Shown here in pieces: positions 29,912-33,960 of a stretch of DNA of 64,000 bases. This DNA comes from Candidatus Nomurabacteria bacterium (GTDB lineage Bacteria > Patescibacteriota > Minisyncoccia > Phycocordibacterales > UBA918). Within the stretch, counting starts at the first letter, position 1; every line of letters starts with the position of its first letter. Under the pieces are notes generated by a model. That model was not told the origin of the DNA. It worked only from the letters and a program-made list of their open reading frames with translations, and ran no database searches. The stretch covers positions 665,778 to 729,777 of the forward strand of contig JACKGH010000001.1 in assembly GCA_020632075.1 (NCBI GenBank), given 5' to 3'. The translations under genes and the position numbers were made by a program.

Positions 29912-30304
29912 CTACCCCAAGATATTTTCAGTATTGGCTCCTGGCGCCACATCGTACACCTCAGTCAAAGTCACTCGGATCAACCCGTGCAAGGTTCGAT
30001 CAGGAAAGCGCTCTTTCATTTGAATGATCGCTGCTTCATAGGCTGGCCCATGTGTTTCATACGTTGCAATCCCCTTCAGTTGCACGCCAACAAAATCTCG
30101 CCAACAGGCGACTGCTACCGCTTCGTCGGTCTGCACATTTTCTTTGGTCTTGTGCATAAAAAAATCATACAGAAACAATTCATTTCCGATCAGCTGCCAC
30201 ACCGAGACGGGCACCACATTGATCCCGTGCGGACCAGTAGTCGCCAACACCATCGACTGCGCCCCCATGATCACTTCTTGGAGTTTTTTCTTCATTAGAT
30301 ACAT
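29912..30304 (-). CDS. Pyridoxamine 5'-phosphate oxidase-like FMN-binding protein
   Basis: 130-aa split-barrel pattern (MVLATTGPHGINVVPVS...). Confidence 0.7.
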   Translation of the reverse strand: MYLMKKKLQEVIMGAQSMVLATTGPHGINVVPVSVWQLIGNELFLYDFFMHKTKENVQTDEAVAVACWRDFVGVQLKGIATYETHGPAYEAAIIQMKERFPDRTLHGLIRVTLTEVYDVAPGANTENILG

Positions 30305-30403: not shown

Positions 30404-30435
30404 AAAACACGGCGGCCCTTCGGGCCGCCGTGTTT
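30404..30435. terminator. Bidirectional terminator after nrdA
   Basis: aaaacacggcggccc-ttcg-ggccgccgtgttt. Confidence 0.7.
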
Positions 30436-30444
30436 ACATCATAC

Positions 30445-32139
30445 TTACTTCTCCAAATTCTCTCGATCTTTCTCTGCCAACTTCTTGCGCGCCATCTGCT
30501 GTGCCGCGTTCATTGAGTGTTGGTAGTACAAACTCTTTACACCTTGCTTCCACGCCTTGATGTAGAGTTGATTGATATCCTTGGCTGGAATGTCTGGTGG
30601 CACCATCACGTTGAGTGACTGCCCTTGGTCGATGTACTGCTGTCGATCCCCTGCCTGATCAATGATCTTACCCTGGTGGATTTCAGGGAACGTACGGTAC
30701 ACCGCCTTCTCTTCCTCGCTCAAGAAATCAAGATGCTGCACTGATCCGTCATTGTCGCGGATACTATCCCAGACGTGCTTCACGTCCTGCTCCTTTTCTG
30801 CGAGCAACTTCTGGAGGTTTGGATTTTTGATCGTTACCTTCATCTTCGCTACGTCCTTCACGTAGCAGTTAGACCAGATCGGTTCGATTCCCTGTGATAC
30901 CTGTCCGAGAATAAATGCAGAAGAAGTCGTCGGTGCGATCGCCAAGAGAGTCGTATTGCGACGTCCGTATCCCTTGAGGATCTCTGGCTCACCAAGCTCT
31001 TTTGCAAGTTCCTTAGTAGCTGCTTCTGCTTTTTCAAACATAAGCTTGAAGACTTCTTTGTTGAGTTCAGCTGCCTCATCACTCTCAAACGGCAAGTTCT
31101 TTGCCTGGAGGAGTGAGTGGTACCCAAGTACCCCGAGTCCAAGCGCGCGGTTTGCTTTTGCAAAGGCGTGCGCGCGTGACATGAATTCAAACGCTCGTCG
31201 CTTCTCCGGATCCTCACTATCACGCATCGCCTCAAGCTTCAAAATAAAGTCTTCCATTACTGCATCAAGGAACGCGATCATGGTCTCAATCAGATCAGTA
31301 TCTTTCCAATCGTGGTAGTGCAGCAAGTTGACTGACGAGAGACAGCACACGAATGACCAATCTTCCTTGCTTGGGAGCATGATCTCGCTACACATGTTTG
31401 AGGCGTAGATCTTGAGGTCTTTATCTTTATATACTTCCGGCCGCACCTTGTTGGCGTTGTCGGTATACATGATGTATGGATACCCCATTTCACCACGACG
31501 CTGAATGATACGAGCCCAGATCTTGCGCTTGTCCTCATCGCCGTCGATCATTTCTTCCATCCACTTGTCCCCTACCGTGACCCCGTGGGTGAGTTTCTGG
31601 ATCGGATTACCTTCGGTACCAATATCAAGGAACTCCATAATATCTGGATGTTCAGCTGGCAAGTACGGCGAGAAGTGCCCACGGCGTACTGAACCTTGAC
31701 TCACCACGTCCACGAGTGTCTCGAAGAGCTGCATGAAGTGTACTGAACCAGACGAGTGGCCATTGCCACCAGAGATACCAGCACCACGCTCGCGCACTGC
31801 ACCGAAGTACCCAGAACAACCGCCACCAAACTTACTCATCATGCCCACCTCAGCATTGGTAAAGAGGATGCTACCCATATTGTCGTCGACGTATGAACCG
31901 AAACAACTGATCGGCAGACCTTTATCAATACCGAAGTTAGACCACACTGGCGATGCGAGTGAGATCCATCCCTTCGACATATATTCGTAGAATTTGTCCG
32001 CAAAACCTTTGCGTCCAAGAATCTCTTCAGCTTTGTCAGCGATCACCTTGATGCGATCCTCTGCCGTTTGGCCTTCGGCTAAATATCCTCGGGCTAAAAA
32101 CGCGCGACTATTTTCGTTCAGCCAGTACCAGGGTTCCAT
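30445..32139 (-). CDS. nrdA: Class I ribonucleotide reductase alpha subunit lacking an ATP cone
   Basis: NMCSEIMLP, the C-terminal Tyr pair (SLYYQ), and a PFL-like barrel; 564 aa with no N-terminal cone. Confidence 0.9.
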   Translation of the reverse strand: MEPWYWLNENSRAFLARGYLAEGQTAEDRIKVIADKAEEILGRKGFADKFYEYMSKGWISLASPVWSNFGIDKGLPISCFGSYVDDNMGSILFTNAEVGMMSKFGGGCSGYFGAVRERGAGISGGNGHSSGSVHFMQLFETLVDVVSQGSVRRGHFSPYLPAEHPDIMEFLDIGTEGNPIQKLTHGVTVGDKWMEEMIDGDEDKRKIWARIIQRRGEMGYPYIMYTDNANKVRPEVYKDKDLKIYASNMCSEIMLPSKEDWSFVCCLSSVNLLHYHDWKDTDLIETMIAFLDAVMEDFILKLEAMRDSEDPEKRRAFEFMSRAHAFAKANRALGLGVLGYHSLLQAKNLPFESDEAAELNKEVFKLMFEKAEAATKELAKELGEPEILKGYGRRNTTLLAIAPTTSSAFILGQVSQGIEPIWSNCYVKDVAKMKVTIKNPNLQKLLAEKEQDVKHVWDSIRDNDGSVQHLDFLSEEEKAVYRTFPEIHQGKIIDQAGDRQQYIDQGQSLNVMVPPDIPAKDINQLYIKAWKQGVKSLYYQHSMNAAQQMARKKLAEKDRENLEK

Positions 32140-32189
32140 AGATGTACAGAAAATTTATTCGTTACTAAAGTTGCGACAGTATACAAGAC

Positions 32190-33503
32190 CTAGAAGAGGT
32201 CATCACTAGTGACACTCGCTGATCGTTTGTTGTAATTGATCGAACGCTTGTGGAAGAAGTCGACATGCTTGGTTGCGATCACTTCGTTGTCGAACCAGTC
32301 AGTCTCATCGAGCAGCGCCTCGCTTACCTCGAAGATGCGTGGCAAACCAATCGCAACCAATGAATTATTGAGACGATTCTTCACAAACTCCTTTACATTT
32401 GCAGCAGGCATAAAGTCGAGTTCGCCTTGTTCGAAGATCCAGTCAATAATCGCTTCCTCTGCTTCATATGCGTCTTCACATGCCTTGATCAGGGTCTTGG
32501 TGCACTTTTCATCAAACCATTCTGGATGCTCCTTCTTGATGATATTGATCACATCAATTCCAAAGAGACCATGAATTTGCTCTTCCTTTGAGGTTGCTTC
32601 CACTGCGTTACTGATACCCTTGAACAAGTTCTTGTGCTTGTTGAAGCTCATCATGATGAGGAACTGTGAGAAAAGCGATACATGCTCAACAAACAGTGCA
32701 AAGAGCAGGATCGCATGAGCATATTCCCGGTTTTCACTATTCTTTGAGAGCTCGATCACCTTTTCCAAGTAATCCATTCGATTCTGAATGACTGGAATGT
32801 CTTTGATCTTCTTGAACTCATCGTTGAGACCAAGGATCTCCAAGAGGTGTGAGTAGGCATCGGTGTGACGAACCTCAGACTCTGCGAAGGTAGCACCAAC
32901 TGCACCGATCTCTGGCTTTGGCAGCTTCTTGTAGATATCGCCCCAGAAGGTCTTCACAGCAACCTCGATCTGCGCAATCGCAAGCATAGAATTGCGGATG
33001 GCATTTTGTTCTGCCGGAGTGACATTCACATGAAAATCTTGGATATCGGAGGTGAAATTGAATTCAGTGTGAAGCCAGTAAGAGTGCCGAATGGCATCTA
33101 CGTATTCGTACAGCTCAGGATATTCATACGGCTTGAGGTTTTGCCGCTTGGCAAAAATATCCCGTTCGCGCATTTTTTTGCGCTCGTTACGGTAAATGAT
33201 GTATGCCTTAGCAGTATCATAGTAATCCTTTTCCATCAGGGCCTGTTCAACCAGATCCTGGATCTCTTCCACAGCAGGATTACCATCGATACACTTCTTG
33301 GCGAGTGGGTCATCGGGTGCGGCAGTACCAGCCTGCACACACATCGCGACTACTTTTTGATGGGCCAACTCCGCGACATCTTTAGCAGCGTCTCGATTCC
33401 CTTCCCCGGTCTCTGCCAGGGCCTTAGCTATCGCATTTTCAATTTTTACGATATCAAAAGGTTGGATCGAGCCGTCACGCTTTCGGATATTTTGGATCTC
33501 CAT
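32190..33503 (-). CDS. nrdB: Class I RNR beta (radical-generating, ferritin-like) subunit with N-terminal ATP-cone domain
   Basis: N-terminal IRKRDGSIQPFDIVKIENAI (ATP cone), then the metal ligands EVRH, EHVS and EEQIHG of R2. Confidence 0.85.
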   Translation of the reverse strand: MEIQNIRKRDGSIQPFDIVKIENAIAKALAETGEGNRDAAKDVAELAHQKVVAMCVQAGTAAPDDPLAKKCIDGNPAVEEIQDLVEQALMEKDYYDTAKAYIIYRNERKKMRERDIFAKRQNLKPYEYPELYEYVDAIRHSYWLHTEFNFTSDIQDFHVNVTPAEQNAIRNSMLAIAQIEVAVKTFWGDIYKKLPKPEIGAVGATFAESEVRHTDAYSHLLEILGLNDEFKKIKDIPVIQNRMDYLEKVIELSKNSENREYAHAILLFALFVEHVSLFSQFLIMMSFNKHKNLFKGISNAVEATSKEEQIHGLFGIDVINIIKKEHPEWFDEKCTKTLIKACEDAYEAEEAIIDWIFEQGELDFMPAANVKEFVKNRLNNSLVAIGLPRIFEVSEALLDETDWFDNEVIATKHVDFFHKRSINYNKRSASVTSDDLF

Positions 33504-33960
33504 AGCAAATCTTAACTAATTTCGTGTTGGTTACGAGTAATCACTTTTTCGGATGATTGCGGACAGGCATAATTGGTGGAAGACAACACCAGTCGGTATG
33601 TACCAACTGATCAATTAGGTCCACGCGCAATCAAGGTCGCGACAAACACACCGCCATGTATTTTTATGGCTCATGAACTCTTCTTGGCTTAAGAGGAGTC
33701 GGTGTGTCTTACCTCCGACACACGATACTTCGTGTGGTTACCCCATCTTACCACCCTATACGTTTTTCATCAGAGACTGACACACCGATAAATAAGGGTA
33801 TTTTCGCGGTTGCGCGCTAGAATCTGTGGATAACTAGTGCACAGCAAAAATAGAAATTATGAATACACTTTTGCCAATATATACAGGCGATTTATTTTGT
33901 TTCACATTCATGAGTTTTCTTGACAATACGTTTGTAGATACCATTTTTTACAAGGGAAAT
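33504..33960 (-). promoter_or_regulatory. Long (about 455-nt) structured 5' leader of nrdB-nrdA with ACAC...GTGT palindromes
   Basis: No ORF; it contains ACACGAAGTATCGTGT and GTGTGTC-n8-GACACAC inverted repeats. Confidence 0.3.

Follow-up and report, generated by a model that had tools for sequence, protein, structure and literature searches.

We examined a 64,000-nucleotide (nt) stretch of a Candidatus Nomurabacteria bacterium genome (GenBank assembly GCA_020632075.1, contig JACKGH010000001.1, positions 665,778 to 729,777 of the forward strand; below, the window, numbered from its first letter), in which two adjacent minus-strand genes encode a ribonucleotide reductase (RNR). The upstream gene, nrdB (32190..33503), was recognized from the open reading frame (ORF) listing and Pfam as a 437-amino-acid (aa) fusion of an ATP-cone to a class Id R2 protein (NrdBi), and the downstream gene, nrdA (30445..32139), from the same sources and TIGR02510 as a 564-aa cone-less class Id alpha subunit (NrdAi). 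The operon junction between them is a 50-nt spacer (32140..32189, minus), and 13 nt past the nrdA stop codon begins an intrinsic terminator consisting of a hairpin and a T-run (30404..30432, minus), with a fold of -31.8 kcal/mol and a z-score of -6.1; the same hairpin was absent from the output of a consensus scan. The locus is a two-gene operon, nrdB-nrdA, closed by a terminator and encoding a class Id (NrdAi/NrdBi) RNR. The C-terminus of its NrdA past the Tyr-Tyr pair (30445..30519, minus) is 24 residues long and contains no cysteine, so that the redox tail of the catalytic subunit is missing.

The initial annotation had described a beta-before-alpha gene order, and the two ORFs lie exactly as it placed them. 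GTDB species genomes contain at least 579 candidate stretches that encode a relative, the best 80 of which we refer to as the named loci; nrdB precedes nrdA in every one of the 78 named loci that yielded both genes, and in 10 of 10 further loci. Beta-borne cones are reported to be almost confined to beta-alpha operons, the order found in 70 of 104 NrdAi (PMC9669993).

The same annotation had proposed an ATP-cone at the N terminus of the R2 protein. Indeed, residues 5-110 of NrdB (33174..33491, minus) match PF03477 at 75.6 bits, far above the cut-off of 25.8 (E 4.7e-21), in one continuous frame with the ferritin-like R2 core at residues 120-393 (32325..33146, minus; Ribonuc_red_sm, 208 bits). 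Cone and R2 form a single ORF of 437 aa, ruling out a separate upstream ORF for the cone, whose KRDG motif begins at residue 8. The proposed R2 ligand motifs are all present as ESEVRH (E210/H213), VEHVS (E273) and EEQIH (E308/H311); the metal ligands are E180, E210, H213, E273, E308 and H311, with Tyr217 at the radical-site position. The top matches among solved structures are all class Id, led by the cone-bearing NrdB of Leeuwenhoekiella blandensis (5olk, E 3e-172, aligned over residues 2-437) and followed by 6sf4 (3e-153), 8dq3 (3e-120) and 6cwo (4e-101), while the first match to any other class reaches only 1e-22. Foldseek ranks the matches in the same order, with about 60% identity to 5olk over the whole beta subunit.

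Residue-level comparison with L. blandensis gives the same picture. The metal-site residues published for that enzyme, Glu170, Lys174, Trp177, Tyr207, Glu263 and Thr294 (PMC5794259), map through the 5olk alignment to E180, K184, W187, Y217, E273 and T304 of NrdB, all of which are invariant in 48 aligned cone-bearing NrdBi. The residues of its dATP-induced cone-cone interface (Asp73, residue 76, Met80, Lys89, Ile92, Ile93 and Arg95; PMC5794259) are kept here as D83, E86, M90, K99, I102, I103 and R105, the set that corresponds to the beta4 contact. An AlphaFold model of NrdB, with a mean predicted local distance difference test (pLDDT) score of 83 and values of 82-95 in the cone, superposes on 5olk with a template modelling (TM) score of 0.83-0.85. 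Homology to the L. blandensis protein thus makes it highly probable that NrdB is a class Id beta subunit with a dimanganese cofactor, in which the N-terminal cone would serve as the overall on/off switch. With ATP bound, beta would be a dimer within an active alpha2beta2 complex; with two dATP bound per cone, cone-cone contacts would push beta to a tetramer and trap alpha in unproductive complexes. Two points caution against transferring this switch unchanged: our comparison of cone residues covers the interface set, and a 13-residue insertion in the cone, described below, could alter its behaviour.

The catalytic subunit has Ribonuc_red_lgN at residues 6-73 followed by the barrel domain (329 bits), and a Pfam scan of the whole 564-aa protein gives no ATP-cone, as had been suggested; NMCSE begins at residue 248, and residues 538-539 are the Tyr pair. 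NrdA belongs to TIGR02510 in NCBIfam (742.7 bits versus a cut-off of 602.25), its best solved matches are the class Id alpha subunits 6dqx (E 1e-210) and 6dqw (E 2e-181), and its length equals the published NrdAi median of 564 aa (PMC9669993). All 113 aligned NrdAi have C79, N248, C250, E252 and C265, and Y538 and Y539 are invariant as well. Since the catalytic residues are intact, the active-site disulfide (C79-C265) still has to be reduced. In class I enzymes the C-terminal Cys pair of alpha performs this step after every turnover and links the reductase to thioredoxin or glutaredoxin.

Taken together, the Pfam, NCBIfam and Protein Data Bank matches and the signature and interface residues all assign the pair to the NrdAi/NrdBi type, so the cone-on-beta reading of NrdB is correct. 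It is not new, as the architecture was published in 2018 (PMC5794259) and its link to beta-alpha gene order in 2022 (PMC9669993). The accompanying claim of rarity stands for the phylum, where full-length cone-NrdBi occur in 5 of 401 sampled genomes, and falls within the genus of the window, where 39 of 43 species have one; in the other genera of the family the count is 2 of 37 genomes. The best 120 database homologues of NrdB show 80% identity or more, those with names being Candidatus Kaiserbacteria, Nomurabacteria, Parcubacteria and similar. Many Flavobacteriaceae, some Gammaproteobacteria, one Erysipelothrix and many Patescibacteria groups appear among the best 80 GTDB relatives. A literature search for a class Id cone-on-beta enzyme in Patescibacteria or Parcubacteria found no description.

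To place the missing tail in context, we compared the nrd loci of 39 relatives in the genus and of six other Patescibacteria. Among the 39 genus NrdA whose C-terminus could be read, 38 have no cysteine after YYQHSMNAAQ, the sole tail-bearing member being G447, whose NrdA ends ..KICVSCEA. All six Patescibacteria outgroups end in C-x2-3-C-E-(A/G) or C-V-V-C-E. The 80 named loci have 71 readable NrdA ends, 68 of which are C-x2-3-C-[EQ]-[AGS]; the remaining three lie inside the genus clade. Loss of the cis tail from the NrdA of this genus is real. Both PMC6187632, which states that all class I enzymes bear a redox-active Cys pair at the C-terminus of NrdA, and PMC9669993, which ascribes such a pair to class I in general, describe the tail as a common property, and we found no published description of a class I alpha subunit without a tail or of a tail acting in trans, subscription papers being beyond the coverage of the search.

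Two simple ways of rescuing a cis tail were considered and set aside. Read-through or frameshifting at the nrdA stop is rejected because the tail-less loci contain no tail remnant (C-x-x-C-E-[AG]) in any frame within 240 nt downstream, and because a terminator follows the stop. A compensating new cysteine within NrdA fails too, as only C108 is specific to tail-less proteins, yet in just 29 of 41, and C266 is also found in tail-bearing ones. Residue 108 itself (31816-31818, minus) lies in the GGG-x-S loop, where the Thr to Cys change is seen in none of the 72 tail-bearing sequences.

To get an evolutionary perspective on the loss, a tree of 114 NrdA was built (quick LG+G4). The genus clade has a support of 99 in the Shimodaira-Hasegawa-like approximate likelihood-ratio test (SH-aLRT) and includes three tail-bearing rows; G447 is nested among tail-less NrdA, beside four of them, with an SH-aLRT of 100. 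With the tail columns removed, an approximately unbiased (AU) test rejected a single tail-less clade (difference in log-likelihood 111, p 3e-8). Given this rejection and the nested position of G447, the cis tail was lost at least twice, and the tree supports only two or three losses.

The tail-less enzyme might alternatively be regarded as a decaying or accessory class Id pair, with the class III enzyme NrdD supplying deoxynucleoside triphosphates (dNTPs) and tail loss as the first step of pseudogenization. The host genome (1,183,919 bp in two contigs, rated 99.7% complete) does encode an NrdD with its own ATP-cone on contig 2 (PF13597, 514 bits), this being its other reductase beside a single class I/II barrel gene, and the class Id pair is patchy across the phylum, as the counts above indicate. 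Decay, however, fits poorly with two genes that are intact in 39 of 43 genus species at 67-86% identity, with catalytic, radical-transfer and metal residues that are invariant, with a beta subunit that retains its alpha-binding C-terminus, and with a leader and DnaA box conserved at the operon (see below). We consider it the most improbable of the explanations entertained here, with very little to recommend it.

A search of the genome for glutaredoxin (Grx), with inspection of the reading frames, identified a 103-aa Grx-like protein encoded about 262 kb from the window (G000:C1:403295-403603, minus). Residues 3-79 match GST_N_3 (52.8 bits) and Glutaredoxin (49.2 bits), with CPFC at positions 10-13, and the last 24 residues end in ..KPRVHVGGSTCTSCEG, which is the class Id alpha-tail motif. 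An AlphaFold model has a beta-alpha-beta-alpha-beta-beta-alpha fold at pLDDT 82-93 and an extension at 43-48; the low values of the extension fit a flexible arm. The best 120 database homologues all end in C-x-x-C-E-G and are titled glutaredoxin 3 or glutathione S-transferase N-terminal domain. The database version of this protein from the same genome (P0124) is 85 aa long (100% identity, 83% coverage) and would begin past CPFC; its start was probably called too far downstream, since the homologues back the 103-aa start. The gene downstream encodes a putative ribosome hibernation factor.

The distribution of this motif is complementary to that of the cis tail. A sequence of the form ..PR[VI]H..C-x-[SA]-C-E-G-stop is encoded in trans in all 38 tail-less genomes: 27 of them, including the present one, carry it as the end of a Grx fusion, as C-x-[SA]-C-E-G apart from one C-E-S-C-E and one C-E-A-C-E-A, and the other 11 carry it on a free ORF of 36-44 aa that has an N-terminal (F)DFDLP motif and ends ..PR[VI]H..S-x-C-[VIT]-[SA]-C-E-G. 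In G447, which has retained its own NrdA tail, the Grx is a 76-aa protein without a tail, and the sole pattern match is its own nrdA. The free ORFs were located with a degenerate DNA pattern that detects only C-x-x-C-E-[GA]-stop; a listing of all genome frames ending near C-x-x-C gave at least 373, mostly noise, and family searches and the stricter pattern were used instead. The pattern had zero matches in G464 and G466, two genus members without class Id, and in the outgroups G401, G420, G079 and G315 it returned only their own NrdA tails or noise frames.

The likeness to alpha tails extends past C-x-x-C itself, with PR[VI]H upstream and E-G-stop downstream. One fusion ends in NVCISCEG, identical to the last eight residues of NrdA from three other lineages, and another lineage has a long-linker NrdA tail, ..VVHVSENICTSCEA. 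Conservation across 26 aligned fusions is highest in the tail, whose cysteines and following Glu and Gly are invariant in all. Three genus members that lack class Id, G469, G472 and G464 (L242, L243 and L244), encode a class Ia-like NrdA of about 955 aa whose own tail ends in ..RLHVAEDAVCESCQ, ..KLHIAEEAVCDACQ and ..PRLHVAGDSVCEACE, respectively. The pattern of these tails, ..[RK]LH[VI]A..VC-x-x-C-[QE], is similar to that of the trans tails, down to the PR/LH motif. The NrdA of G469 and G472 ends in C-E/D-S/A-C-Q and their Grx tail in C-x-x-C-Q; the Grx tail thus follows the type of the resident reductase.

The explanation we favour for these observations, with a confidence only slightly above even, is that the alpha tail now works in trans, carried by a Grx-like protein or a free peptide. 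The most serious competitor is an ordinary class Id enzyme whose tail-less alpha is re-reduced by a free redoxin or a low-molecular-weight thiol, with the Cys-tailed Grx and the mini-ORFs serving other thiol chemistry and owing their likeness to how common short C-x-x-C ends are. Such a scheme has a chemical precedent, as small dithiols reduce RNR active sites directly in vitro (PMC4520616), and the genome does contain a second small Grx-like gene (G000:C2:35811-35990). Also in its favour, Grx homologues in other genera of the family without class Id (L203-L219) often end with single-Cys extensions such as ..VCP[VI]E, ..VCMLE and ..CIPKELL instead of C-x-x-C-E-G. A chance likeness, on the other hand, would have to account for a motif present in 38 of 38 tail-less genomes and in neither the one tail-bearing genome nor the two without class Id, for similarity beyond C-x-x-C that reaches an identical 8-mer, for a Grx tail that switches to C-x-x-C-Q where the resident NrdA does, and for the tail being the best-conserved part of the fusion. 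We consider this competitor unlikely, at perhaps one chance in a handful.

Several points nevertheless weigh against a tail acting in trans. The evidence for it is one of distribution and sequence likeness, and the Grx-tail gene is unlinked to the nrd operon, as the free-redoxin explanation would allow. Because the tail-less cases all come from a single genus clade, the count of 38 out of 38 does not amount to 38 independent events, and the group submitted to the AU test was named after the tree had been seen. The pattern scan has a background of 0-3 matches per genome, for which reason each match was judged by ORF inspection, and it leaves out the outgroups G107 and G028. Cis and trans tails occur together in G469 and G472, an arrangement that also suits a free redoxin; the trans tail is thus not just a substitute for the cis tail, and its main function may be a different one. 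Five of the 26 aligned fusions have C-x-x-S as their Grx motif and one has S-x-x-C, and with the second or first Grx cysteine replaced, classical dithiol self-recharging cannot hold for all fusions. Neutral between the readings is a complex prediction of NrdA with the Grx-tail protein, run without controls, which scored 0.26 and 0.28, below the mark of 0.32.

If the tail does act in trans, it would enter the alpha active site, like the tethered tail of other class I enzymes, become oxidized and carry the disulfide out; in a fusion it would then be recharged by its own Grx domain, which in turn could be reduced by the thioredoxin reductase (TrxR)-like flavoprotein whose gene is present in the genome (G000:C2:6356-7255). 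The lineage probably had the tailed Grx before, or upon, acquiring class Id, so that the cis tail would have been dispensable. In its full form, to which we give even chances, the proposal is of a class I reductase without a covalent redox tail, in which the tail is a diffusible product, either fused to Grx or a free peptide of about 40 residues; the cis tail of a horizontally acquired class Id alpha would then have become dispensable and been lost on at least two occasions, and the trans tail could serve or regulate more than one reductase. This last possibility is raised by two relatives in which the trans tail occurs alongside a class Ia-like alpha that has its own tail.

A further candidate for the lost shuttle lies in the cone of NrdB itself. 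Between helix 2 and strand 3, where 5olk has a 13-residue gap, an insertion is flanked by Cys55 and Cys71 (33291..33341, minus); owing to this insertion, 106 NrdB residues match the 88-position cone profile. In the AlphaFold model, helix 2 of the cone is extended to residue 60 and is followed by a short helix. The cysteine pair, at a constant spacing of 16, is present in 40 of 40 genus loci and was not found in the cones of G079, G315, G107, G028 or L. blandensis. Other Patescibacteria cones have one or two cysteines in the same loop, and the related loci L078 and L079 have C-D-G-Y-C just ahead of strand 3 in place of a pair of the Cys55/Cys71 type. The pair could in principle have taken over the role of the alpha tail, by analogy with the N-terminal Grx on the NrdB of Facklamia ignava, a published case in which a redox module added at the N-terminus of NrdB reduces the enzyme (PMC6187632), and its constancy within the genus and absence outside it would agree with that. 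Yet G447 has the cone pair and still retains its alpha tail, the model places Cys55 in the extended helix (H37-60) of a folded domain (pLDDT 84-91) and off any flexible arm, and the trans-tail ORFs account better for the distribution. We regard a shuttle role for the cone cysteines as very unlikely.

Upstream of nrdB lies about 500 nt of non-coding sequence. It contains the one perfect DnaA box of the window, TTATCCACA (33825..33833, minus), some 320 nt ahead of the nrdB start. Of 40 genus loci, 28 have a perfect box in the 520 nt preceding nrdB, and 36 have a box there if a single mismatch is allowed; none of five outgroups has a perfect box. DnaA regulates nrd operons in Escherichia coli. 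No NrdR was found in the 99.7% complete genome, and this, together with conservation of the box, is what leads us to suggest DnaA-linked control: transcription may be tied to replication through the DnaA box and a structured leader, a proposal we put forward tentatively, at somewhat less than even odds. Farther upstream than the box is a promoter-like -35/-10 pair (33876..33905, minus) that matches the consensus at 9 of 12 positions, such sites being no more frequent than in shuffled sequence.

The leader has two recognizable elements. A putative hairpin with GGAGG in its loop (33702..33723, minus), visible in the alignment, is the best-conserved block of the upstream region. The second, at the 3' end of the leader RNA (33555..33626, minus; 72 nt), consists of an 11-bp outer stem around a variable hairpin and a CUUCCACC stretch, and it shows covariation: 94.5% of cells are paired in 20 sequences, compensatory changes occur at five pairs, and none of 500 shuffles reached the covariation score. 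These 20 sequences were picked by motif match in both arms, from the 21 of 40 loci having both motifs. The leader as a whole (33555-33775) folds better than 200 of 200 shuffles (z -2.7). Rfam has no family in the leader, either at the gathering threshold or at E values up to 5, and an alignment of the whole leader from 36 upstream regions, which was too gappy, gave no consensus structure.

Just downstream of nrdA, a 130-aa ORF (29912-30304, minus) encodes a PNPOx-like flavoprotein (PF01243, 31.9 bits). Such a protein might supply superoxide for cofactor assembly, a role that we considered; as the ORF sits behind the terminator, we make no claim of it. Class Id beta proteins are characterized by an Mn2(IV,III) cofactor, the absence of a tyrosyl radical and independence from NrdI; in line with this, the 99.7% complete genome gave no match to an NrdI family. 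Outside the window, on contig 1, a third cone-bearing gene of the genome (L003:1489-2325, plus strand) encodes a 278-aa protein with an ATP-cone (34.8 bits), an AF1548-like C-terminal domain and a weak match to Mrr-type nucleases.

As such, the explanation that best covers the locus combines a class Id cone-on-beta operon, a redox tail acting in trans and replication-linked transcription, and as a whole we judge it moderately probable. The cone-on-beta layout by itself adds one more lineage to a published type of enzyme, whereas detachment of the redox tail from a class I reductase would be a variant that we have not found in print. If the trans tail is confirmed, a natural example in class I would demonstrate that the shuttle can exist as a module of its own, and a 564-aa alpha subunit with a partner of 103 or about 40 aa would be a simple system in which to study how the tail finds the active site. 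It would also warn annotators that tiny Cys-tailed ORFs and proteins labelled 'glutathione S-transferase N-terminal domain' in ultra-small bacteria may be essential for dNTP synthesis. The repeated loss within one genus offers a comparative test, with G447 having the cis tail and no trans tail.

Among known systems, the closest in overall plan is NrdAi/NrdBi of L. blandensis (5OLK, 6SF4/6SF5; PMC5794259). Both enzymes have the cone on beta, a cone-less alpha and nrdB upstream, and they have in common the metal ligands, the Lys/Trp/Tyr/Thr signature and the cone-cone interface; each genome also has a second RNR, class II in L. blandensis and a cone-bearing class III here. Unlike L. blandensis, the present system has a 13-residue, two-Cys insertion in the cone, an alpha without the Cys pair and a 1.18-Mb Patescibacteria host in which NrdR was not found. 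The class Id alpha subunits of Actinobacillus ureae and Flavobacterium johnsoniae (6DQX and 6DQW) are, like NrdA here, minimal proteins of about 560-585 aa, the alignments to them leaving out the last 7-11 residues of those proteins.

With respect to the source of reducing power, the Grx::ATP-cone::NrdB protein of F. ignava (PMC6187632) is similar: it belongs to class Id, bears its cone on beta, comes from an nrdB-nrdA operon whose spacer measures 46 nt, and has a dedicated glutaredoxin reductant. In that enzyme the Grx is part of the beta chain, and alpha retains a C-terminal Cys (..L-A-C-E-A-stop, as translated from the printed reverse primer), whereas here the Grx is separate, distantly encoded and itself equipped with an alpha-like tail that alpha does not have. 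A published precedent for a detached module is the split class II reductase NrdJa/NrdJb of Pseudomonas aeruginosa (PMC4520616), of which the system proposed here would be the class I counterpart. In that enzyme the thiol-disulfide exchange module with its C-terminal Cys is a separate polypeptide; NrdJb mediates the exchange and is essential in vivo, and without it the catalytic chain is active only if an artificial reductant is supplied (PMC4520616). NrdJb, however, belongs to class II, is encoded beside nrdJa and is a tightly bound subunit, whereas here the enzyme is class I and the candidate module, encoded away from the operon, is either the 24-residue extension of a redoxin or a separate peptide of 36-44 aa.

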